Shown here: positions 3,544 through 58,247 of the stretch, piece by piece
Numbering within the stretch: the first letter of the stretch is position 1
Layout: each line of letters opens with the position of its first letter
Assembly: GCA_026397235.1 (NCBI GenBank)
Contig: JAPLVG010000023.1
Location: 1-61,050 of the forward strand
Reading direction: 5' to 3'
DNA: 61,050 bases
DNA from: Candidatus Berkelbacteria bacterium
GTDB lineage: Bacteria; Patescibacteriota; UBA1384; XYA2-FULL-43-10; CAINNR01
Notes under the pieces: model-generated
Told to the model about the DNA's origin: nothing
Database searches by the model: none
The model's input: only the letters and a program-made list of their open reading frames with translations
Position numbers and translations under genes: made by a program

Positions 3544-4512
3544 ATGACAGATGAAGTAACAATTCGAATAAAAGCAGGCAGGGGTGGAGATGGATCCGTC
3601 TCTTTTTTGCGTGAGAAATTTCGTCCAAATGGTGGTCCAGATGGTGGAGACGGCGGAAATGGTGGTAGCATAATTTTCGTTGCCGATAATAATGTTAACA
3701 CACTAACTTTTTTTGATAGTCGCAAATCATTCAAAGCCGCGGATGGCGAAAATGGTACAGGCAAAAACATGCACGGCAAAGAGGCAGAAGATTTAACTCT
3801 TTTGGTTCCGCAAGGGACAACAATTTCTGAAAATGGAAAAATCGTCATCGATATGACCAAAGTCGGTCAAACCTTTATTGCCGCACGCGGAGGCAATGGG
3901 GGTTGGGGAAACCAGCACTTTGCGTCATCAATCAAGCAAAAGCCAGAGTGGTCCAAACAGGGTTTGCCAGGCGAAGAGAAAGAGATTAAATTGGAGCTTA
4001 AACTTATAGCCGATGTTGGACTTGTTGGATTTCCAAATGCTGGTAAATCCACTTTACTTTCCGTTGTCTCAAATGCTCGGCCAAAAATTGCCGATTATCC
4101 ATTTACAACTCTGGAGCCGAATTTAGGCGTGGTAACTATTTATGATAAGGAATTTATTTTTGCTGATATTCCAGGGCTAATTGAAGGCGCATCTGTTGGC
4201 CGCGGTTTAGGGGACAAATTCTTAAAACATGTCGAGAGAACAAAAGAACTATTGCTAATGATTTCAGCTGAATCAGAAAATCCAGCAGGGGACTATAAAA
4301 TTTTGCTTAAAGAGCTAAATGATTATTCTAAAGTTTTAGCCAAAAAACGAATATTAGTCACAATCTCAAAATCAGAAATCTTGGATGAAAAAAGCAAGAT
4401 AAAAATTGCAAAAGATTTTAAAAAAATTAAAATAATTCCAATATTTTTCTCCGCTGCGATCAGAGAAAATTTAGATAGCTTACTTGGCAAAATTTTTGAC
4501 TTTATAAAATAA
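3544..4512 (+). CDS. obg: GTPase Obg/CgtA
   Basis: 322 aa; glycine-rich Obg fold (GGDGSVSFLREKF...GGPDGGDGGNGGSIIF) plus G-domain (GFPNAGKST, DIPGLIEGA). Confidence 0.95.
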   Translation: MTDEVTIRIKAGRGGDGSVSFLREKFRPNGGPDGGDGGNGGSIIFVADNNVNTLTFFDSRKSFKAADGENGTGKNMHGKEAEDLTLLVPQGTTISENGKIVIDMTKVGQTFIAARGGNGGWGNQHFASSIKQKPEWSKQGLPGEEKEIKLELKLIADVGLVGFPNAGKSTLLSVVSNARPKIADYPFTTLEPNLGVVTIYDKEFIFADIPGLIEGASVGRGLGDKFLKHVERTKELLLMISAESENPAGDYKILLKELNDYSKVLAKKRILVTISKSEILDEKSKIKIAKDFKKIKIIPIFFSAAIRENLDSLLGKIFDFIK

Positions 4513-4584
4513 GAGTTTAGTCAAAAGCGTGCTCAAAAGACCTGTGGTGAGTCGGTCGAATCCAGAACCGTCCCCCTTACTTGG

Positions 4585-4612
4585 TTGACAATATTTTTAA
4601 TCGCACTATACT
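4585..4612 (+). promoter_or_regulatory. Sigma70-like promoter (distal, upstream of rpoB)
   Basis: TTGACA (4585-4590), 16-nt spacer, TATACT (4607-4612). Confidence 0.55.
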
Positions 4613-4700
4613 ATTATATGTACTATCAAATAAGTGCAGGAATAACTGCATGCACACAAGGTTAATAAAAGGAGGGGTTTTCCGTTGCCAGCCGGAGGGG

Positions 4701-4729
4701 TTGACAAAGTTTTTTGTGTCTGATAATAT
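4701..4729 (+). promoter_or_regulatory. Sigma70-like promoter (proximal, upstream of rpoB)
   Basis: TTGACA (4701-4706), 17-nt spacer, TAATAT (4724-4729); predicts a ~155-nt rpoB leader. Confidence 0.6.
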
Positions 4730-4837
4730 TAATTTGTAAGAAATAATTGAGCGGTTAATGAGTTCTATCACAGCATAAAAGGGATAGGTTTTTCAGTGCC
4801 CCAACATTGGGTAAGTTTTTTGTTTAAAAAATACCAT

Positions 4838-4870
4838 CTTAAGTCACTTAAATCTCTTGAGTCACTTGAG
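4838..4870. repeat. Tandem 15-nt word repeat in the rpoB leader
   Basis: CTTAAGTCACTTAAA (4838-4852) and CTTGAGTCACTTGAG (4856-4870); each unit is itself nearly palindromic. Confidence 0.75.
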
Positions 4871-4890
4871 AATAAAATAAGGAGAGAGTA

Positions 4891-7800
4891 ATGGCAGTGA
4901 AAACTCAACTTGTGAATAAGCGTCTTCTAGAAAAGAAAAAAGCTCATGAAGTTCCACTACCGAACTTAATTGAGGTACAAACCGAGTCATATAACTGGTT
5001 TTTTGCCGAGGGAATGCGAGAACTCTTTGATGAAATCTCTCCAATCGAGGATTTTACTGGCGAAGTGATGTCATTATCCTTTGGAGATTATTTTCTTGGC
5101 GAGCCAAAAGTGCCAGAAGCGGTGGCCAGAGAAAAAAATTTAACCTATAAAGCGCCTCTTAAAGTACGCGTGTCGTTGCTTAACAAGAGAACTGAAGAAA
5201 TTAAAGAAGCTGACGTGTTTATGGGCGATTTTCCAATTATGACTCACCGAGGAACTTTTATCATCAATGGAGTTGAGCGCGTCATTGTTTCTCAAATTGT
5301 TCGCTCCTATGGAGTACTTTTTGCTAATAATGAAGTTGCCGGCAGAAAACTTTTTGGTGCAAAAATTATTCCATCACGTGGCGCTTGGCTGGAAGTTGAA
5401 ACAGATCTTAAAAATGTCATTTCAGTTAAAATTGATCGAAAACGCAGAATCCCGGTCACCACATTTTTACGTGCTCTTGGTGTTGGCAATGACGAAGAAA
5501 TTAAAGCCTTGTTCGCCGATGTCGATGTCAATGACGAAAATCATTACATTGAAGCCACTCTTAAAAAAGATCCAGCCAAAAATTATGAAGAAGGCTTGGT
5601 TGAAACATACAAAAAAATTCGTCCAGGAGACTTAGCAACAGTTGAAAGCGCAAAATCTTTTATTGAAGCGATGTTTTCCAATATCAAACGCTATGATATT
5701 GGTCGCGTCGGCCGATATAAAATTAATGCCAGACTTAAGGTTGATACTAAAAATGTTCCGGAAAACCGCGTTCTATTAAAAGAAGACTTTGTAAATATTA
5801 TCCGAGAAGTGATCGAATTAAATAACAATCCAGCAGCTTTGCCTGATGATGTTGATAGCTTGAAAAATCGCCGAATTCGTGCCGTTGGTGAGCTAATTCA
5901 GGGCCGCGTTCGCGTTGGTTTGCTCCGTGTTGAGAGAATTGTCAAAGACCGAATGAGCATATCCGAACCAGATGAGACGACTCCGGCGCAATTAATTAAC
6001 TCCCGTCCGATTGTTGCAGCTCTTCAAGAATTTTTTGCTTCCTCGCAAATGTCACAATTTATGAATCAGACTAATCCCCTTTCCGAACTTGAACACAAGC
6101 GAACACTTTCTGCTACCGGTCCAGGCGGACTTTCAAGAGAAAGGGCCGGTTTCGAAGTTCGAGATGTTCACGTTACTCACTATGGCAGAATTTGCCCGAT
6201 TGAAACCCCTGAAGGACCAAACATCGGTTTGGTCGGATATCTTGCATCATATGCAAAAATTAACGATTATGGATTTATTGAAACACCTTATAGAAAAGTT
6301 ATTCTCGAAAACGGCAAGCCAAGAGTTACAGACGAAATCGTTTATTTAGATGCTTCAAAAGAGGAAGACACGATTATTGCCCCTGCTTCAGTTGAAGTTA
6401 ATGAGCAAGGATATATTAAAGACAAAAAAGTCATCGTCCGACATGGCGGTGAGCCAACGATTGCCGATGCAACCTCGGTTGTCTTTATGGATGTTTCACC
6501 AAAACAAATTATTTCTGTTACGGCGGCGCTTATTCCGTTCATCGAACACGATGATGCTGCAAGGGCTTTGATGGGTGCTAATATGCAACGGCAGGCTGTT
6601 CCTTTGGTTGAACCGCAATCAGCAATTATCGGTACTGGTATGGAGAGTGCTGCAGCCAAAGACTCGGGTCAAATTATCTTGGCGATTACACCAGGTACAG
6701 TTAGTCATGTGTCATCAAATTTAATTAGAGTTAAAGAGGCAAAGGGTAATCAACGTGAATATTTCTTGTCAAAATTTGTTCGTTCAAATCAGGGCACTGT
6801 AATTAATCACAAACCACGCATTAATGTTGGTGATATTGTTAAATCCGGGGATTTATTGGCTGACGGTTCAGCAACCCAAGACGGTGAAATTGCCCTGGGT
6901 CGTAACTTAAAAGTAGCCTTTATGTCTTGGGGTGGTGGAAACTATGAAGACGCTATTATTATCTCGTCAAAATTAGTAAAAGACCATGTTTTGTCATCTA
7001 TTCATATTGAAAAATATACTTTGGAAGTTCGTGACACCAAACTAGGTCCAGAAATTCTAACTCGCGATATTCCAAATGTTTCAGAGGAAGCGTTGTCAAA
7101 CTTGGATGAAAATGGAATTATTCGTGTCGGTGCCGAAATTACCGCTGGTGATATTCTGGTTGGGAAAATTTCGCCAAAAGGTGAGACTGAACTTTCTGCT
7201 GAAGAAAAACTGCTCCGGGCAATTTTTGGTGAAAAAGCTAAAGATGTCCGTGATTCCAGTTTGCGTTTGCCTCACGGTGAACGTGGAAAAATTGTTGAAG
7301 TTAAAATTTTCTCTCGGGAATCCGGAGATGAGCTTCCTGCAGGAGTTTATCAAATGGTGGAGGTCTCGGTTGCGCAACTGCGAAAAATTTCTGTCGGTGA
7401 TAAACTTGCCGGTCGTCACGGTAATAAAGGTGTTATTTCAACAATATTGCCAGAAGAAGATATGCCTTTTATGCCAGATGGCACCCCGGTTGATATTATT
7501 TTGAACCCGCTTGGTGTTCCGTCCCGTATGAATATCGGCCAACTTTTTGAAACTCATTTGGGCTGGGCAATGGAAGCACAAGGTATTAAAGTTGCGTCGC
7601 ATGCTCTAGATGGTATTAAGCTTGAAGAAATTCGCCAAGAATTAAAGAAAGCTGATTTACCGGAAGACGGTAAAATTCAGCTCTATGACGGAAAAACCGG
7701 CGAACCATTTGATCATCGAACTGTTGTGGGTATTATTTATATTATGAAACTTTTTCACTTGGTTGACGATAAAATGCATGCAAGGTCTATTGGACCATAT

Positions 7801-12039: not shown

Positions 12040-12108
12040 CACAGATCTACGTCACAGATAGTCACAGATAAGGAAATAATCGGTTTAAATCTGTGGTAAT
12101 AATCAGTG
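12040..12108. repeat. Full heptamer palindromic array (3 forward + 3 reverse) upstream of rpsL
   Basis: CACAGAT at 12040, 12053, 12063 (spacers 6 and 3 nt); 9-nt loop; ATCGGTT 12079, ATCTGTG 12089, ATCAGTG 12102 (spacers 3 and 6 nt, mirrored). Confidence 0.9.
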
Positions 12109-12549: not shown

Positions 12550-12552
12550 AAC

Positions 12553-12668
12553 CAGGTTAGGGTTAAGAAGCCGGTTTAGAAATAGAAGTTGGAAATTGAG
12601 GTAGGATTAATCCAACTTCTCCATCAAATTTCTACTTCCAAACTGGCATCCTAACCCAAAACCTAACT
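12553..12668. repeat. Long imperfect palindrome filling the rpsL-rpsG spacer
   Basis: Core stem AGAAGTTGGA (12584-12593) / TCCAACTTCT (12611-12620) with 17-nt loop; outer arms GGTTAGGGTTA.../...CCTAACCCAAAACCTAAC also complementary, with bulges. Confidence 0.7.
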
Positions 12669-12679
12669 TCTAAAAAATT

Positions 12680-13156
12680 ATGTCACGAGGTCATCAAAAA
12701 ATTAAAAAACACCGATTGTTGCCGGACCGAAAATACGGCAGTATTTTGGTGACTAAATTTACCAACTATGTTATGGATAACGGCAAAAAATCTGTTGCTG
12801 AAAATATTATCTACTCTGCACTGGAAAACTCATCCAAAAGATTAAACGCACGTCCACTTGATGTTTTGGAGCGAATGATAAAGAATGTAGGGCCACTGTT
12901 GGAAGTAAAATCCAAACGAATCGGCGGAGCCAATTATCAAGTTCCAATGGAAGTAAATAGCGCCCGCAAGGAAACTTTGACACTTCGCTGGATTATTACC
13001 GCTGCTAAAGCCAGAAAAGGTGCTCCAATGGCACAAAAACTAGCATCAGAGTTAGTCGATGCCTGCAACAATACCGGTGCTGCGATTAAAAAGAAAGAAG
13101 ATACTCATCGCATGGCCGAAGCCAACAAGGCCTTCGCCCACTTCGCCAGACTGTAA
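12680..13156 (+). CDS. rpsG: 30S ribosomal protein S7
   Basis: 158 aa; typical S7 sequence (PDRKYGS..., GGANYQVPMEV, MAEANKAFAHF). Confidence 0.97.
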   Translation: MSRGHQKIKKHRLLPDRKYGSILVTKFTNYVMDNGKKSVAENIIYSALENSSKRLNARPLDVLERMIKNVGPLLEVKSKRIGGANYQVPMEVNSARKETLTLRWIITAAKARKGAPMAQKLASELVDACNNTGAAIKKKEDTHRMAEANKAFAHFARL

Positions 13157-13212
13157 AATACTGTTTTGATAAAACAAAAGCCACGATCTCTCGGGGTTTT
13201 TGTTTTGCTGAA

Positions 13213-13947
13213 ATGATAAAATTGTGCTATAAATTAGTAATCCTAAGCATTCGAGGTGCTCTAGTGAGCTTGCTATTTTCCGCCTTAGAAGAACAGGGTG
13301 TCCGGAACGGTTGGTTAGTCGAGTCGCACAGGAATGGTTTTCCATGTGTCAAGATGGGGAAGGATTGTCGCAGTGGGGAGGAGAAATGGATTTCTCTTCA
13401 TCCAGCGTACAGGAACATCGCATCCGGGAGCCGGATCGAGCGAGGCGTAGTTTACCTGAATGGTAATGGCAAATGGGTGCTTCGTCCCGAGTCCAAGAGG
13501 AGTGAACAGACTGATGGTACCGCTTCAGTGATAGTTCGGGGTTATTTCTATCCCTTTCCAACGTCAACTCACTATCGCTTGGTGCCATGCCCGCAGCGTG
13601 GTATGACGAAGGTGGCTTGGGGTGAGCCGATCTGCAATGTTTGTTTTGAAGGCTATCATGACTGGGTTCACCCGATGTCGGGCGAAAAGAAGCTGTTTCT
13701 GCGCGAATCTGTTCCCGAGACTTTCTGCGCAGATGGTTGGTTCCAACTGGCTACGGAGTCCGTGGTCATCGCTCCAGGAGAGAAGGTGGCAATCAAGCAG
13801 TTGCTGCTCACACTTGTGCCAGGTGGAGCATTCCGTTTGCCAACACTGTCTGAGTATCTGATTGGCACTGATCACATATTGTCGCTATCCCGCGAAGGAC
13901 GGCAGCTGACATTTGAACGACACTGGGAATGGAATCGTGTCGAGTAA
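13213..13947 (+). CDS. Hypothetical protein in a GC-richer cassette (start uncertain; alternative ATG at 13354)
   Basis: 244-codon open frame in a ~0.75-kb stretch visibly richer in G+C than its flanks; no SD seen at either start; no family recognised; followed by its own terminator. Confidence 0.45.
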   Translation: MIKLCYKLVILSIRGALVSLLFSALEEQGVRNGWLVESHRNGFPCVKMGKDCRSGEEKWISLHPAYRNIASGSRIERGVVYLNGNGKWVLRPESKRSEQTDGTASVIVRGYFYPFPTSTHYRLVPCPQRGMTKVAWGEPICNVCFEGYHDWVHPMSGEKKLFLRESVPETFCADGWFQLATESVVIAPGEKVAIKQLLLTLVPGGAFRLPTLSEYLIGTDHILSLSREGRQLTFERHWEWNRVE

Positions 13948-13951
13948 CCGC

Positions 13952-13981
13952 ATCGCCGTGTGTATTCCGGCGATTTTTTTG
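13952..13981 (+). terminator. Rho-independent terminator closing the GC-rich cassette
   Basis: ATCGCCG (13952-13958) / CGGCGAT (13968-13974) followed by T7. Confidence 0.7.
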
Positions 13982-14056
13982 TCACATCGTCCGACTGATT
14001 TGCGCCGATCGGTCACAATCGGTCGGAAGTTTTAAGGTTCAGCTTTTTTGTCTTGT

Positions 14057-14086
14057 TTGACAAGAGTTGAATATTTATGATATAAA
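14057..14086 (+). promoter_or_regulatory. Sigma70-like promoter re-starting transcription for fusA
   Basis: TTGACA (14057-14062), 17-18-nt spacer, TATAAA (14081-14086). Confidence 0.6.
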
Positions 14087-14137
14087 TGTAAGTGCTAAGG
14101 AGGGAGTTTTTTATTTTGGCCGAAAGCCAAAATTCCC

Positions 14138-14216
14138 TACTAAATTACTAATTTAGCCAATATACTAATAATTTCTTATTTCTTATTTGTATATTAGGGG
14201 GATTAGTATATTAGTA
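14138..14216. repeat. Palindromic word array using TACTAAT/ATTAGTA words (fusA leader)
   Basis: Forward TACTAA(A) 14138, TACTAAT ~14146 and ~14163; reverse ATTAGGG, ATTAGTA, ATTAGTA ending at 14216. Same forward/reverse logic as the CACNGAT arrays but a different word. Confidence 0.7.
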
Positions 14217-14235
14217 GTTAATGATTAAGGAGAAT

Positions 14236-16311
14236 ATGCCCCGGGATTATTCACTGGAAAAAACTAGAAACATTGGAATCGCCGCTCACATTGATGCCGG
14301 AAAAACTACCGTCACCGAGCGTATTCTTTACTATACTGGCAAAAAACACAAAATCGGTGAAGTTCATGAAGGCGCTGCCGAAATGGACTGGATGGAACAA
14401 GAAAAAGAGCGCGGCATTACCATCACTTCTGCTGCGACGACCTGTTTTTGGAAAGATAATCGAATAAACATTATTGATACTCCGGGTCACGTTGACTTTA
14501 CAGTTGAAGTTGAGCGCTCTATGCGTGTTCTCGACGGTGCCGTTGTGGTTTTTGATGGTAAAAACGGTGTTGAACCACAATCAGAAACGGTTTGGCGCCA
14601 AGCTGACAAATATAATGTTCCGCGTATTTGTTTCATTAACAAGCTAGATGCTATTGCCGGTGATTTTTATATGAGCTTTAATTCCATAATCGATCGCTTG
14701 AAAGCTAATGCTGTTGCTATGCAACTTCCGGTTGGCAAAGAAAGTGATTTGCGCGGCGTTGTTGACTTAATAGAGCAAAAAGCATACATCTACACTTCTG
14801 AGGATTTGGGAAAAACCTACAAAGTTCAGGATATTCCTGCCGAGATGAAAGCCGACGTTGAAAAATGGCGCGCTGACATGATCGAAAGAATTTCCGAAAC
14901 TGATGACCTACTTTTGGATAAATATCTTGCAGGCAAGGAGCCAACAATTCCTGAGCTTAAAGCAGCTGTTCGAGCTGCTACCATTAAAGGCGAAATGTAC
15001 CCGGTTTTTGCCGGTACTGCACTCAAAAATAAAGGTGTCCAGCCACTACTTGATGCTGTCGTTGATTATTTGCCTTCGCCAATGGATGTTCCACCACTAA
15101 AAGCCAAGGTTTTAGGTTCTGACGAAGAGGTTGAAATTAAAATTGATGACGATGGTCCATTTGTTGCTCTAGCTTTCAAAATCGCTGCCGACCCATTTGT
15201 TGGGAAATTAACATTTTTCCGTGTTTATTCTGGCAAACTAACGTCTGGTAGTTACGTACTAAATACCAGGTCGGGTGAGAAGGAACGAATTGGCCGTATT
15301 CTACGAATGCATGCCAATCACCGAGAAGATGTTTCCGAAGTTTTCTCCGGTGAAATCGCTGCTGCCGTTGGGATGAAAGCGACTGTTACTGGTGATACAT
15401 TATGTGATGTAGGTCAGAAGTATATACTAGAACAAATTATTTTCCCTGAACCAGTTATCTCTATTGCAATTGAGCCAAAAACTAAGGCTGATCAAGAAAA
15501 AATGGGTATTGCTTTGCAAAGACTTTCAGAAGAAGATCCAACCTTCCGTGTTCATACCGACCTAGATTCTGGTCAAACGATTATTGAAGGTATGGGTGAA
15601 CTACACTTGGAAATTATTGTCGATCGAATGAAGCGAGAATTTAAAGTCGAAGCCAATGTTGGAAATCCACAAGTTGCCTACAAAGAAGCAATCCGCAAAT
15701 CTGTTGAGCAAGAAGGTAAATATGTTCGTCAGTCTGGTGGCCGTGGTCAATACGGCCATGTATACTTGAAAATCGAGCCAAATGAAGAAGGCGCCGGATT
15801 TGAGTTTGTCAACAAAATTGTTGGTGGCGCAATTCCAAAAGAATTCATCAGTCCGGTTGAGGCCGGTGTCAAGGAGGCAATGGCCAAAGGAGTTATTGCC
15901 GGCTACCCGGTTGTTGATACCAAAGTTACGCTTTACGATGGAACTTTCCACGATGTTGACTCTTCAGAAATGGCTTTCAAAATTGCCGGTTCCTATGCTT
16001 TTCAAGAAGGTTTTAAGAAAGCCGATCCAATTATTCTCGAGCCTATTATGAAAGTTGAGGTAACAATTCCTGAAGAGTATACTGGAGATGTTGTCGGCGA
16101 CTTAAACGCAAAACGTGGTCAAATTGAAGAAATGATTGATCGCGCCGGAGCCAAGATCATCGACTCTAAAGTTCCGCTATCATCCATGTTCGGCTATGCC
16201 ACTTCACTAAGGTCAATGACTCAAGGCCGCGGAAATTACACCATGGAATTTGATCATTATTCCGAGGTTCCAGGCAATATCGCAGTTCAAATTATAGAGG
16301 GGAAGAAGTAA
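14236..16311 (+). CDS. fusA: Elongation factor G
   Basis: [21 protein letters not shown] motifs. ATG at 14236 is preceded by AAGGAG and aligns with the canonical EF-G N-terminus (the ORF track starts 5 codons earlier at 14221). Confidence 0.97.
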
Positions 16312-16329: not shown

Positions 16330-16398
16330 CACAGATCTATTTCACGGATTAGCACAGACAAATGAAAAATCAGTGAAAATCAGTGAACAAAATCTGTG
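16330..16398. repeat. Full heptamer palindromic array downstream of fusA
   Basis: CACAGAT 16330, CACGGAT 16343, CACAGAC 16353; ATCAGTG 16369, ATCAGTG 16379, ATCTGTG 16392; spacers 6/3 then 3/6. Confidence 0.9.
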
Positions 16399-19575: not shown

Positions 19576-19945
19576 TTTAGTAATAAAAAGCCCAGTAATA
19601 TCCGAAAAAAGCTTTGCTCTTGCTAGCACTGGTGTTTATGTATTTTTGGTTACACCGGAAGCTAACAAGAAAATTGTTGCTACCCAAGTGCACGAAATGT
19701 ATAAAGTCGATGTCGAAGAGGTCAGAATTATTAATATTCCTGGTAAAATTAAAAGAGCTGGTAAGAAAATGGGCCGTCGCTCTGACATCAAAAAGGCTTT
19801 AGTAAAAGTTAAAAAAGGTCAAAAAATTGCAATCTTCGAAGAAGAAAAATCGGACAAGAAAAAGGAAGAAACCACACAGATTGTTGACACAGAAAAAACA
19901 CAGAAAAAACCAAAGGCTGAAGTCAGTGAAAAGTCAGTGAAATGA
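19568..19945 (+). CDS. rplW: 50S ribosomal protein L23
   Basis: 125 aa, GTG start overlapping the rplD end; L23 core (PVISEKSF..., VKKALVKVKKGQKI) plus a ~28-aa tail read through a full heptamer array. Confidence 0.93.
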   Translation: MNNLVIKSPVISEKSFALASTGVYVFLVTPEANKKIVATQVHEMYKVDVEEVRIINIPGKIKRAGKKMGRRSDIKKALVKVKKGQKIAIFEEEKSDKKKEETTQIVDTEKTQKKPKAEVSEKSVK

Positions 19946-22259: not shown

Positions 22260-22325
22260 CACAGATTTTATTCACAGATTGACACAGAAAAATGAATCGG
22301 TGAATATCAGTGAAATAGATCAGTG
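22260..22325. repeat. Full heptamer palindromic array upstream of rplP
   Basis: CACAGAT 22260, CACAGAT 22273, CACAGAA 22283; ATCGGTG 22296, ATCAGTG 22306, ATCAGTG 22319; spacers 6/3 and 3/6. Confidence 0.9.
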
Positions 22326-23665: not shown

Positions 23666-23696
23666 CACAGATTTATTACACAGAATTAACACAGAA
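23666..23696 (+). repeat. Heptamer array, forward arm only, upstream of rplX
   Basis: CACAGAT 23666, CACAGAA 23679, CACAGAA 23690. Confidence 0.8.
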
Positions 23697-24852: not shown

Positions 24853-24922
24853 CACAGATCAATTGTCACAGATGAACACAGATAAGAAAAAATCAGTGAA
24901 TATCAGTGTTGACAGATCAGTG
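24853..24922. repeat. Full heptamer palindromic array upstream of rpsH
   Basis: CACAGAT 24853, 24867, 24877; ATCAGTG 24892, 24902, 24916; spacers 7/3 and 3/7. The 5' half, including AATAAGGAAGTAAAAACT, is ~90% identical to the array at 58181. Confidence 0.9.
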
Positions 24923-42883: not shown

Positions 42884-43078
42884 ATGACTGCAAAACAAGC
42901 AGCACAACTTATTTCAAACATCAAAGCGGCAAGAGAAACTATTTCAGAGATGACGCCCGCACAGAGAAAAAACCTCGAGAGATCGTGGGATGTTGAGCAT
43001 GCCTATTATTCCAGTTCTTTAGAGGGCAGCAATATAAGTAGAAAAGAATTTAATAAAATTGCAGAAGATGTAAAATAA
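42884..43078 (+). CDS. Fic-inhibitory antitoxin-like small protein (class I FicA/VbhA-like)
   Basis: 64 aa; contains S-x-x-x-E-G (YSSSLEGSN), the inhibitory-helix motif; directly upstream of the Fic gene. Confidence 0.6.
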   Translation: MTAKQAAQLISNIKAARETISEMTPAQRKNLERSWDVEHAYYSSSLEGSNISRKEFNKIAEDVK

Positions 43079-47163: not shown

Positions 47164-47252
47164 CACTACTAATATAATAATTTCTCTAATATACCAATAA
47201 ATCCCATTCGTATATTCGGTAAATTCGTAAATTAGTAGTAAGTGAGGTGATT

Positions 47253-50033: not shown

Positions 50034-51755
50034 CTACTCTTTGGCACCCCTAGCCAGGAGCAGTTTAATGACATCATCCAAACTATGTTCCATCGCGCGT
50101 TTGAGCGGACGAACGCCGCTATCGCCAGGCAGATTGACATTGGCTCCTTTTTCGATCAGGAACTTAGCCAGCTCAGAGTGGTCGCTGTCAATTGCCCATA
50201 TTAGCGGGTTGTTGCCGTCGGTACAGATGTTGATGTTGGCACCACTATCCAGAAGCAACTGCGCCTTTTGTACATCACCAGTTAATGCAACTTCCATTAG
50301 TGGTCCAGGTTCGCCGGCGCCCAACCGACAATCCGGTTCGGCACCATGTTGCAGAAGATAACTTACGCAGTCATTGCTGCCAACAACGCATGCAACTGAT
50401 AATGCGAGCGGTTTACTGGAGTGGACCTTAAAGTCATAGCCGCCCCGTTGATCCCTGGCGTTAGCCAGTGATGGATCAGTGTTAAGACATGATTCCATTG
50501 TAGTCAGGTTCCCGGACTTGATGGCATCAAAGAAAGATGCGGTTTGCCCCGGCAATCTGAGCCGCAACGTAATTGGTGAGGTTATCAGCAATGTTTGTTC
50601 TCCCAATTTAGTTGTTCCAATTACACGGACAACATAACGGTATGTGCTACCCGGTGTTACTGATGTGTCGGTCCAACCGGTCTGAAAATCATCGCCTCCG
50701 TTCAGATTGCAGTAGCTCCGTTCTCCCGCGTACTCCTGCCTGGCTACCTCAGTCCCGTCTCGGTAGACGATGATTTTCACGTCACTGGCAGATAACCGAG
50801 CCAGTGCAGTGATGGTCATTTTATCAACGCCTTCAGTATTGAATCCTGGATTTTGTCCGCCATCGCTGACAAAATCTGTGAAGAATGCACCATTGCAAGC
50901 TGCATAGGTTTTGCCTTCAGAAATCGCGCAAATTATTGATTCCTCGCTGAAGTCGTCGGCATAGACCCAGGTTACTCTATCGAGGGATCCGAGCAGTGCG
51001 TCTGGGATACTTGACGCGATGGTGCCGTGGTAATCGGACCCGGCTGTGACAAAAACCAGGAAATTATGCGACACAAGGAGGAGATACCATCTGACACATT
51101 CATCGTCCTGGCCTGGGCCAAGTGTGTTCATATGCTCTACTCCGCACAATCCATCAAAGCCCTGCTGCATGTTGAAGCGGTTGTCTGATCTGGCGAGGTT
51201 AATGCCTGACAACATCTGCGTGGGGTGAGCGGCAACCGGCAACATGCCCAACGTCAGCGCTTGGTTGATAATCGATTGTTGCATGTCCAGCCGATCGACT
51301 ATTGGCTGGTTGGCTCCTGTCCCCAAAGAGTAGCAGTTGACGAAGGCTTTAAACCTCTCGTCCAGATTACCAAACACAACGATATGGCTGTGCGCCAAAG
51401 TGTTTGGCTCCGGATGCCAAAGTGACCCAACTTCGGCACCTGGTATGGCGACGAAGTGATTGTTGCTTTCGGCCCGGATTGATGCCGGATATCCCTTCTC
51501 CCAACCCGGGTGCGCAACGATCTGATCAAAGTGATCCGTGTTAATCCAGGCACATTTGTGATCTGACCGGAGTGAGCCCAGAAGTTCCTGAATCTTCAAG
51601 GCGAGCTGGTTTATAACATTGCCACCATCAGACCATGTTGATGTATGAGTGTGTATCAGCACCGGATACCATTCTCCGCAAAAGCCGGGGGAGCAAATCA
51701 TCAGCAAGAACGTTCCCAACAAGCAAAAAACACTTATGCGCTTCAAGGCAATCAC
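50034..51755 (-). CDS. Secreted PHP-domain-like + ankyrin-repeat protein (GC-rich, opposite strand)
   Basis: 573 aa; signal-peptide-like N-terminus; IHTHTSTWSDGG (PHP-type HxH...D); C-terminal ankyrin repeats (NPLIWAIDSDHSELAKFLIEKGANVN...); sampled lines ~55% GC. Confidence 0.75.
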   Translation of the reverse strand: MIALKRISVFCLLGTFLLMICSPGFCGEWYPVLIHTHTSTWSDGGNVINQLALKIQELLGSLRSDHKCAWINTDHFDQIVAHPGWEKGYPASIRAESNNHFVAIPGAEVGSLWHPEPNTLAHSHIVVFGNLDERFKAFVNCYSLGTGANQPIVDRLDMQQSIINQALTLGMLPVAAHPTQMLSGINLARSDNRFNMQQGFDGLCGVEHMNTLGPGQDDECVRWYLLLVSHNFLVFVTAGSDYHGTIASSIPDALLGSLDRVTWVYADDFSEESIICAISEGKTYAACNGAFFTDFVSDGGQNPGFNTEGVDKMTITALARLSASDVKIIVYRDGTEVARQEYAGERSYCNLNGGDDFQTGWTDTSVTPGSTYRYVVRVIGTTKLGEQTLLITSPITLRLRLPGQTASFFDAIKSGNLTTMESCLNTDPSLANARDQRGGYDFKVHSSKPLALSVACVVGSNDCVSYLLQHGAEPDCRLGAGEPGPLMEVALTGDVQKAQLLLDSGANINICTDGNNPLIWAIDSDHSELAKFLIEKGANVNLPGDSGVRPLKRAMEHSLDDVIKLLLARGAKE

Positions 51756-57022: not shown

Positions 57023-57032
57023 AAATTCATTC

Positions 57033-57066
57033 GTATATTAGATAAATTAGTAATTTAGTAGGAGCC
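57033..57066 (+). repeat. 34-nt leader identical to the rpsD leader
   Basis: GTATATTAGATAAATTAGTAATTTAGTAGGAGCC, identical at 57518-57551; includes the SD (GGAG). Confidence 0.9.
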
Positions 57067-57473: not shown

Positions 57474-57506
57474 CACGGATTTATCACACGGATATTGATC
57501 ATAGAT
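57474..57506 (+). repeat. Heptamer array, forward arm only, downstream of rpsK
   Basis: CACGGAT 57474, CACGGAT 57487, CATAGAT 57500; 5' flank AACTACACGGATTT as at 271 and 47866. Confidence 0.8.
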
Positions 57507-57517
57507 AAAATACATTA

Positions 57518-57551
57518 GTATATTAGATAAATTAGTAATTTAGTAGGAGCC
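57518..57551 (+). repeat. 34-nt leader identical to the rpsK leader
   Basis: Identical to 57033-57066. Confidence 0.9.
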
Positions 57552-58180: not shown

Positions 58181-58247
58181 CACAGATCTATTGTCACTGA
58201 TGGACACAGATAAAATAATCCGTGAAAATCCGTGTATAAGATCCGTG
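58181..58247. repeat. Full heptamer palindromic array upstream of rpoA
   Basis: CACAGAT 58181, CACTGAT 58195, CACAGAT 58205; ATCCGTG 58218, 58228, 58241; spacers 7/3 and 3/6. Confidence 0.9.

Follow-up and report, generated by a model that had tools for sequence, protein, structure and literature searches.

The locus described here raises the question of what lies between rpsG and fusA in a member of Candidatus Berkelbacteria (Patescibacteria, candidate phyla radiation), and of how it came to be there. The window, by which we mean the whole 61,050-nucleotide stretch of DNA that was analysed, carries the gene order rpoB-rpoC-rpsL-rpsG-fusA-tuf-S10, and the named S7 proteins nearest to its rpsG product are those of Candidatus Berkelbacteria. 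The original prediction drew attention to an unusual separation of rpsG from fusA, given as ~1.06 kb and measured by us at 1079 nt, and interpreted it as a GC-richer foreign cassette containing either a horizontally acquired gene of uncharacterised function or a large structured RNA overlapped by a fortuitous open reading frame (ORF). Taken together, our findings make it likely that the gap holds a real, self-contained protein gene of an uncharacterised family, situated in a variable islet whose contents are swapped among Berkelbacteria.

Between the two original readings, it is the gene with foreign composition that stands and the structured RNA that falls away. The 244-codon ORF claimed for the plus strand is present in the gap, and positions 13264-13947 encode a real 227-residue protein under purifying selection. 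An exhaustive HMMER scan (phmmer) of 1.84 billion representative proteins with the gap protein recovered P0002 (231 aa), which is 46% identical over its full length (E 8e-51), and P0003 (244 aa), in which the likeness is confined to the first ~55 residues at ~50% identity; a word-indexed protein search with the 244-residue ORF returned nothing, so that relatives were found only by the exhaustive scan. Between the window gene and the gene for P0002, identity at codon positions 1, 2 and 3 amounts to 62, 64 and 36%, the pattern on which our conclusion of purifying selection is based. Different codons are used for 61 of the 105 identical residues, and the translated comparison of the two genes scores 182 bits in the sense frame vs 131 bits in the best other frame. 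The sense frame is free of stop codons in all four family genes (every other frame contains 3-20), and shuffling the window ORF leaves it without stops in only 0.05% of cases. An earlier impression that several frames of the core are open did not survive inspection, as the core is open in the sense frame only and the other five frames hold 5-10 stops each.

These observations weigh directly on the proposal that the region is a large structured non-coding RNA whose ORF is a by-product of GC-richness, for which the sole evidence is a GC-rich region in an AT-rich genome with a terminator alongside. A search of Rfam (4227 families, including OLE, GOLLD, ROOL, HEARO and raiA) gave no match at gathering thresholds across the whole 61 kb, and at E <= 10 over 13100-14260 it gave five chance-level matches, none of them above 13.4 bits over the core, leaving the RNA reading unsupported by a check of the cmscan type. 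Folding of the 786-nt region against dinucleotide shuffles revealed no excess stability on either strand (MFE z -0.09 on the plus and -0.82 on the minus strand). Since the homologues differ from each other chiefly at third codon positions, and all members share just one open frame, we regard an RNA of this kind as scarcely credible.

The extent of the gene differs from that of the longest open frame. On the evidence of its homologues, the true start is GTG 13264 and not ATG 13213, the start of the 244-codon ORF, which is thereby 17 codons too long: the N-termini of P0002 and P0003 (M-S/G-x-L-F...) align to GTG 13264, and gene calls for this ORF in Logan assemblies give either 227 or 244 aa. 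With the start set in this way, the claim that a Shine-Dalgarno sequence is missing no longer applies, because the gene has one, GAGG (13253-56), 7 nt before GTG 13264, and encodes a product of 227 aa; equivalent sequences (GAGGT/AGAGGT) precede the gene starts of P0002 and P0003. The source annotation appears to call merely the C-terminal 114 aa of the gene (P0001). A putative promoter precedes the gene (Table 1), in which GTGnTATAA is invariant in the upstream alignment of three independent cassettes (the window, L086 and L087/L088), and which shares its form with the fusA promoter (repeat D2). Window-wide the motif shows no enrichment, and the promoter is to be read as a consensus match. 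ATG 13213 falls between its weak -35 and its -10 element and is therefore probably not even transcribed. Downstream, what had been described as a clean terminator (13952-13981) does possess the hairpin and the run of seven U residues, but its stability is modest (13952-13974, -10.8 kcal/mol, z -1.5); a simple terminator scan missed this hairpin because of its 9-nt loop. An equivalent hairpin and U-run stand 3' of the homologous genes in L086, L087 and L099. Beyond the terminator lies a 38-nt imperfect palindrome, with no further copy in the window or in viral contigs. We infer the promoter and the terminators from sequence and conservation.

Table 1. Features of the rpsG-fusA interval and its flanks, in window coordinates.
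Feature	Position	Strand	Basis and details
rpsG (ribosomal protein S7), left conserved flank	12680-13156	+	Pfam Ribosomal_S7, E 4e-57
Native rpsG intrinsic terminator, hairpin AAAACAAAAGCCACGA/TCGGGGTTTTTGTTTT, left edge of islet	13171-13206	+	Folding and conservation
Putative cassette promoter	13205-13233	+	Weak -35 TTGCTG 13205-10; extended -10 TG 13225-26; TATAAA 13228-33
Shine-Dalgarno GAGGTG of gap gene	13253-13258	+	Read from sequence; 7 nt from GAGG to start
Protein-coding gene, GTG start, 227 aa	13264-13947	+	Homologues, codon-position pattern, open frame
Putative intrinsic terminator of cassette	13952-13981	+	7-8 bp GC-rich stem, 9-nt loop, U7
Second imperfect palindrome/hairpin, 38 nt, inverted repeat I1	13990-14027	+	-19.5 kcal/mol, z -2.1
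Ancestral fusA promoter and leader, right edge of islet	14056-14118	+	Conserved in relatives
fusA (EF-G), right conserved flank	14236-16311	+	Pfam GTP_EFTU, EFG_III, EFG_IV, EFG_C

The edges of the variable segment are set by elements that belong to the flanking genes. The rpsG terminator hairpin on the left folds at -18.7 kcal/mol (z -4.6), a value that none of 200 shuffles equals, and homologous hairpins are found 3' of rpsG in L099, L089, L101 and L102. An inverted match of 21 nt to this terminator, at 42968-42988, falls within coding sequence and was put down to chance. On the right, the fusA promoter (TTGACA 14057-62, 18-nt spacer, TG 14078-79, TATAAA 14081-86) is followed by a conserved leader block, TAAGGAGGGAGTTTTTTATTTT, at 14097-14118; the composite pattern TGTTTGACA-N17-TGnTATAAAT...AAGGAGG..TTTTTTnTTT (window 14054-14118) is made up of invariant columns upstream of fusA in L092, L098, L101 and L006/L007. 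The start of fusA itself is ATG 14236, aligned with relatives that have the N-terminus MPRDYSLEK in common, with AAGGAG at 14227-32 upstream. Relatives retain the terminator of rpsG, and the promoter and leader of fusA, whether or not they carry an insert, and these elements are therefore ancestral. The element at 14057-14086 that was predicted to restart fusA is thus present as a motif, but it is not part of the insertion. The variable segment is accordingly ~840 bp long, from about 13207 to 14050, its limits falling exactly at the native rpsG terminator on one side and the native fusA promoter on the other. This arrangement suggests that the lineage terminated after rpsG and re-initiated before fusA prior to the insert, and that fusA would be driven by an internal promoter older than the insert. 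The cassette, for its part, may form a transcription unit of its own, closed off at either end, which would leave the expression of rpsG and fusA undisturbed.

The composition of the gene sets it apart from the genome around it. Across the 61 kb, the most GC-rich of all 700-nt windows starts at 13251 (52.4% vs a mean of 39.5%, sd 3.5), in agreement with the GC-richer core originally noted between rpsG and fusA; by part, GC stands at 52.2% in the ORF, 33.6% in 13157-13263 and 26.9% in 14061-14235. The ORF has a GC3 of 0.53-0.55, vs 0.334 +/- 0.039 (maximum 0.435) in the 63 other ORFs (z = 5.0). A tetranucleotide comparison with the remainder of the window likewise reveals a clear difference, as the ORF region lies at a distance of 0.52 from it and thereby beyond all 400 size-matched host windows (0.304 +/- 0.032, maximum 0.40). 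The base composition of the 13264-13947 gene is foreign to its host. The insert is also not an assembly artefact, because its junctions recur, together with an ORF that is 100% identical, in five independent Logan assemblies drawn from two series of runs. Over the bases shared between these five contigs and the window there is a single difference, at 13183 in the stem of the rpsG terminator, where the window has A and the five assemblies have C, which restores the stem pair. Elsewhere in the window, a second GC-rich island at 50034-51755 (ankyrin) has a tetranucleotide profile similar to that of the insert.

The contents of the gap in related organisms provide the strongest clue to its history. 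The relatives compared here are the contigs with the closest S7 proteins, which are short and metagenomic and sample the clade thinly; S7 identities to the window are given in parentheses. In L102/L086 (82%), the gene for P0002, which together with the window gene makes up the pair that we term type A, begins 225 nt after rpsG. L099 (88%) has an intact 249-aa homologue of type B with a different N-terminus, a Shine-Dalgarno sequence, a TTG start and its own terminator. L089-L091 (87%) carry a type B gene that is frameshifted in all three assemblies and lies between two minus-strand genes for receiver-domain proteins (Pfam Response_reg; GC3 0.72 and 0.56), and this type B sequence aligns to the type A pair with an hhalign probability of 96.6% (E 5e-10). 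Other relatives have different contents: receiver-domain genes and an unrelated 322-aa family of host-like GC in L092-L096 (84-85%), an unrelated 217-aa ORF in L098 (84%) and an 88-aa GC-rich minus-strand ORF in L101 (81%). A vague likeness by eye of the 217-aa ORF to the family was dismissed at an hhalign probability of 0.6%. L006/L007 (72%), the nearest relatives of the window in the genome collection, have no insert, and their whole rpsG-fusA gap measures 68-82 bp. We also observed that the three assemblies of L089-L091 break at the same point, beside an ORF whose first 28 residues are HTH-like.

Because homologues occupy the same gap in three lineages, and other relatives have different genes there or none, the gap is a variable islet. 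It is therefore to be seen as a long-standing feature at the level of the clade, with the family as a recurrent and patchy occupant. The original picture of a foreign cassette wedged between the two genes is right about composition and wrong in so far as it implied a one-off insertion, and conservation at this position across the lineage, the outcome that would have made the ORF an ordinary gene, is found by half: the same gap is occupied in three lineages, with different genes elsewhere. The trees of flank and cargo are also in conflict, as the window S7 is nearer to that of L099 (88%) than to that of L102 (82%), while for the ORF the closer of the two is the L102 gene (46% vs 29%). This incongruence is compatible with exchange between lineages, and equally with old paralogues that were lost differentially. 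In addition, all family members keep a high GC3 of 0.47-0.57 in a host at ~0.33; a gene at this site since the ancestor of the clade should have drifted toward the latter value. That GC3 has stayed high points either to a gene acquired repeatedly from some GC-richer pool or to a constraint on composition. Berkelbacteria may exchange the contents of the islet among themselves, for which homologous recombination within the flanking genes, themselves extremely conserved, would be the simplest route. A literature search on Berkelbacteria islands yielded nothing relevant.

Three further explanations of the insert have to be weighed against this evidence. The first is a recent and single horizontal acquisition, in this lineage only, of one gene from a distant GC-richer donor. 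The strongly atypical composition and the minimal gap in L006 and L007 are in its favour, as is the profile of the 50034-51755 island, the similarity of which suggests a common type of donor. Set against these points are the homologues in the same gap of L102/L086, L099 and L089-L091, whose S7 proteins are 82-88% identical to that of the window, and the distribution of the family at large: only three clusters, all metagenomic, were found among ~15 billion proteins, in which the sole member outside this setting is P0003, by its N-terminal module only. With relatives lacking in the JGI metagenome contigs, viral contigs, GenBank phages and PLSDB plasmids that were searched, no distant donor is visible, and we consider a one-off acquisition unlikely.

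The second explanation, that a small mobile or selfish cassette (an integron cassette, a MITE-like element, or cargo of the homing or Tn7-like kind) has the position 3' of rpsG as its target, would account for varied cargo at the same site across lineages, and could draw on the 38-nt palindrome after the terminator and on the shared breakpoint of the L089-L091 assemblies beside the HTH-like ORF. The palindrome is, however, single-copy in the window, and no terminal inverted repeats, flanking direct repeats or target-site duplication were found around 13207-14050. The gap also contains no transposase or integrase, since a single ORF fills it. Integron cassettes carry an attC site with a GTTRRRY core at their 3' end and are usually promoterless; the insert, unlike these, has no GTTRRRY in 13948-14055 and possesses a promoter-like box of its own, the integrase having been looked for within the gap. 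A mobile element of this type is in our estimation very unlikely.

A third explanation holds that the ORF is a remnant in decay or without function, its frame open by accident or its inactivation recent, as the frameshift of the L089-L091 homologue in three assemblies and the apparently truncated call of the source annotation might suggest. The frame is nonetheless intact in the window, in L086/L102 and in L099, and its codon-position pattern points to purifying selection. Together with the conservation of the Shine-Dalgarno sequence, promoter box and terminator, and with the complete identity of the ORF in five assemblies, this renders decay highly improbable. The reading that we prefer thus remains that of a functional gene in a variable islet shared by the clade.

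As to what the gene encodes, the gap protein belongs to an undescribed, tiny and fast-diverging orphan family restricted to Berkelbacteria. The original statement that no family is recognisable was borne out: at E <= 10 the window protein finds no family in Pfam, PHROGs, PADLOC or NCBIfam, the same collections return nothing for P0002, P0003 and the L099 protein, and a profile search of the PDB with three- and four-member alignments reached a best E of 0.15. The four-member alignment of types A and B contains 37 invariant columns, including W17 and H22, and the motif C109-x14-C124-x2-C127-x8-H136 is invariant in these four divergent members, which makes a zinc site plausible. Two candidate motifs were rejected: LIGTDHILSLSREG as an HNH core is without Pfam support and its His/Asn positions are not kept in type B, and GVVYLNGNGKWVL as a GIY-YIG or WG-repeat motif is likewise without Pfam support. 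Two AlphaFold runs on the protein gave mean pLDDT values of 36 and 39. Residues ~15-77 of the latter model (pLDDT 54-76) are arranged as beta1-3/alpha/beta4-5, the order of an OB-fold. Foldseek with the poor model gave no match in the PDB at E < 0.05 (best E 0.058, TM <= 0.2, query-normalised), and the weak matches of the N-domain are to IF1 (E 0.19, probability 0.51), SSB and the anticodon-binding OB domain of LysRS. Searches of the BLASTP, HHpred and Foldseek type, proposed at the outset, thus point to no characterised protein family and no significant fold match.

On these grounds the product may, speculatively, be pictured as small, cytoplasmic and largely of beta structure, with a zinc knuckle of the Cys3-His kind and perhaps an N-domain resembling an OB-fold. 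That it serves as an accessory protein that binds zinc and nucleic acids and has a role in conflict or host interaction is a suggestion that we make with low confidence; the fast divergence, patchy distribution and islet context are what would speak, again speculatively, for such a role rather than for housekeeping. Bolder still, and in our view quite unlikely, is the idea that the gap is a dedicated exchange site for rapidly diversifying OB-like zinc-binding proteins with swappable N-terminal modules. Such proteins would constitute a new factor in defence or symbiosis, with the translation machinery or invading nucleic acids as their target, and their high GC would be maintained by continual re-acquisition from a GC-richer partner such as the host organism of these episymbionts.

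Our findings have consequences at several levels. The gene model is corrected at both extremes, as the gene called in the source annotation seems to cover only the final 114 codons and the longest ORF is 17 codons too long. The space that separates rpsG from fusA, both among the most conserved genes of bacteria, emerges as a small variable islet in one clade of Berkelbacteria. These results may be of use for the annotation of CPR genomes and for understanding how very reduced genomes acquire and exchange accessory genes. The family, which offers four divergent members, a Cys3-His motif and the swapping of modules, invites structural and biochemical study. No new principle is indicated so far, and an ORFan gene in a variable islet is ordinary in kind.

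Several known systems offer a measure for the locus. A classical genomic island or integrative element differs from it in that the gap holds a single ORF without flanking repeats, and a tRNA/tmRNA scan of the window was empty. Proteins that combine an OB-fold with a zinc ribbon (IF1/eIF1A, SSB/RPA-type) resemble the gap protein in the predicted topology of the N-domain followed by C-x14-C-x2-C-x8-H, though as the latter has no significant sequence or structure match to them this is a lead and not a claim of membership. The ORFan families of Patescibacteria and the CPR offer a further parallel, given metagenomic members and no relatives in Pfam, NCBIfam or the PDB, yet unlike other such ORFans the gap family has demonstrable synteny, purifying selection, conserved expression signals and a Cys3-His motif. 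Phage morons, described by Hendrix and colleagues, are autonomous units of promoter, gene and terminator with deviating GC that are inserted between two genes. The cassette is built in much the same manner, with a promoter-like box, a Shine-Dalgarno sequence, a single ORF and a terminator between genes that are adjacent in relatives, and it displays two of the marks of a moron-like autonomous cassette, a terminator of its own and a GC and GC3 unlike those of its neighbours. It differs from morons in lying outside any phage or prophage, flanked by rpoB-rpoC-rpsL-rpsG and fusA-tuf, with no phage genes nearby and no matches in PHROGs or in phage and viral collections. Hypervariable islets between conserved core genes, finally, are known from capsule and O-antigen loci and from the flexible genomic islands of streamlined bacteria. 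In contrast to these, the rpsG-fusA islet measures ~840 bp, comprises one gene and is located within the str ribosomal operon, without tRNA, integrase or direct repeats, and its cargo is uncharacterised rather than composed of surface-polysaccharide or known defence genes. What it has in common with them is a fixed position, lineage-specific content, atypical composition, a patchy distribution and the plausibility of recombination in the flanks.

Comparison of the 227-aa orphan gene product encoded in the rpsG-fusA gap with P0003, a 244-aa protein that matches it at the N-terminus, revealed a common module of only ~55 residues, the C-terminal 190 residues being unrelated. The P0003 cassette, which is present in two contigs at locations not adjoining rpsG, nevertheless has the layout of the window's cassette, namely a terminator, a TGnTATAA box (the extended -10 of the cassette promoter), an SD, the ORF and a terminator. 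In combination, the common module, the unrelated C-terminal part and the like layout indicate a shuffling of modules within this protein family. In the type B homologues, which have a different N-terminus, the gene of contigs L089, L090 and L091 carries an identical frameshift in three assemblies (ENA, JGI and NCBI), and is thus a pseudogene unless the shift is a programmed one. These three contigs stop at the same point, shortly past the start of an ORF whose initial 28 residues are HTH-like (MPNSNQEERLRWIMPILEKKISIKVMAE), an arrangement that would be compatible with an element that is mobile or present in several copies.

The window holds a second GC-rich island, a 573-aa ORF with ankyrin repeats at its C-terminal end that is oriented against nearly all adjoining genes. 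Its tetranucleotide profile lies nearer to that of the island at 13264-13985 than to the profiles of all 400 host windows compared; on compositional grounds, this suggests that the two islands came from a similar donor. Assorted inserts in the rpsG-fusA gap are also present in more distant Patescibacteria, at five loci; three are listed in the table, and in the other two (L011 and L018), with inserts of 0.7-0.9 kb, a convincing ORF was not found.

Coordinates of the cassettes, inserts and spacer elements (window positions unless a contig is named)
Feature	Position	Strand	Description
P0003 cassette	L087 240-974; L088 131-865		
Type B homologue	L089 4640-5379; also L090, L091		Frameshifted
HTH-like ORF	L089 5890-5973		
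Gap insert, L021 (Doudnabacteria)	4501-4982		ORF: four-helix-bundle, 23S-IVS-type
Gap insert, L049	4444-4881		120-aa membrane ORF
Gap insert, L056	4429-8002		3.5 kb, several genes
Second GC-rich island	50034-51755	-	~51% GC, GC3 0.54 (z = 5.3)
fusA leader	14097-14218		Folding z -2.4
Inverted leader word repeats	47165-47200; 57024-57062; 57514-57547		
CACRGAW spacers (examples)	277-307; 12040-12095; 16330-16398; 19875-19905; 22260-22289; 23666-23696; 24853-24883; 57474-57493; 58205-58247		
rpsL-rpsG spacer	12550-12679		130 nt

Base 13183 is the sole mismatch between the window and five independently assembled sequences of the same organism, being A in the window and C in the others; with C, a G-C pair is regained in the stem of the rpsG terminator, matching relatives. 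The source annotation seems to have called the window gene in a shortened form, since its only protein database entry is the 114-aa P0001 (M131 to the C-terminal end; 13603-13947), from a 136,928-nt contig.

The fusA leader holds a block, TAAGGAGG-N3-TTTTTTATTTT, that is kept in relatives and was rejected as the fusA SD because its distance to the start codon is too great. On its 3' side lie ~90 additional nt of "word" repeats (TAGTATATTAG / TAATTTAGTAG), found again in inverted orientation at three sites in the window. The spacers separating ribosomal-protein genes hold clusters of another short word, the heptamer CACRGAW, which occurs 62 times in the window versus 24.5 +/- 5.1 expected, with none of these copies in the rpsG-fusA gap. 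Most are clustered as 2-3 direct copies at 10-14 nt spacing, sometimes with inverted copies close by, and the clusters could be arrayed binding sites for a protein, or else an element acting as RNA. A candidate long imperfect hairpin, ggttagggttaag...cctaacccaaaacctaac, can also be read from the sequence of the rpsL-rpsG spacer; in E. coli, the rpsL-rpsG spacer is the site of S7 autoregulation.
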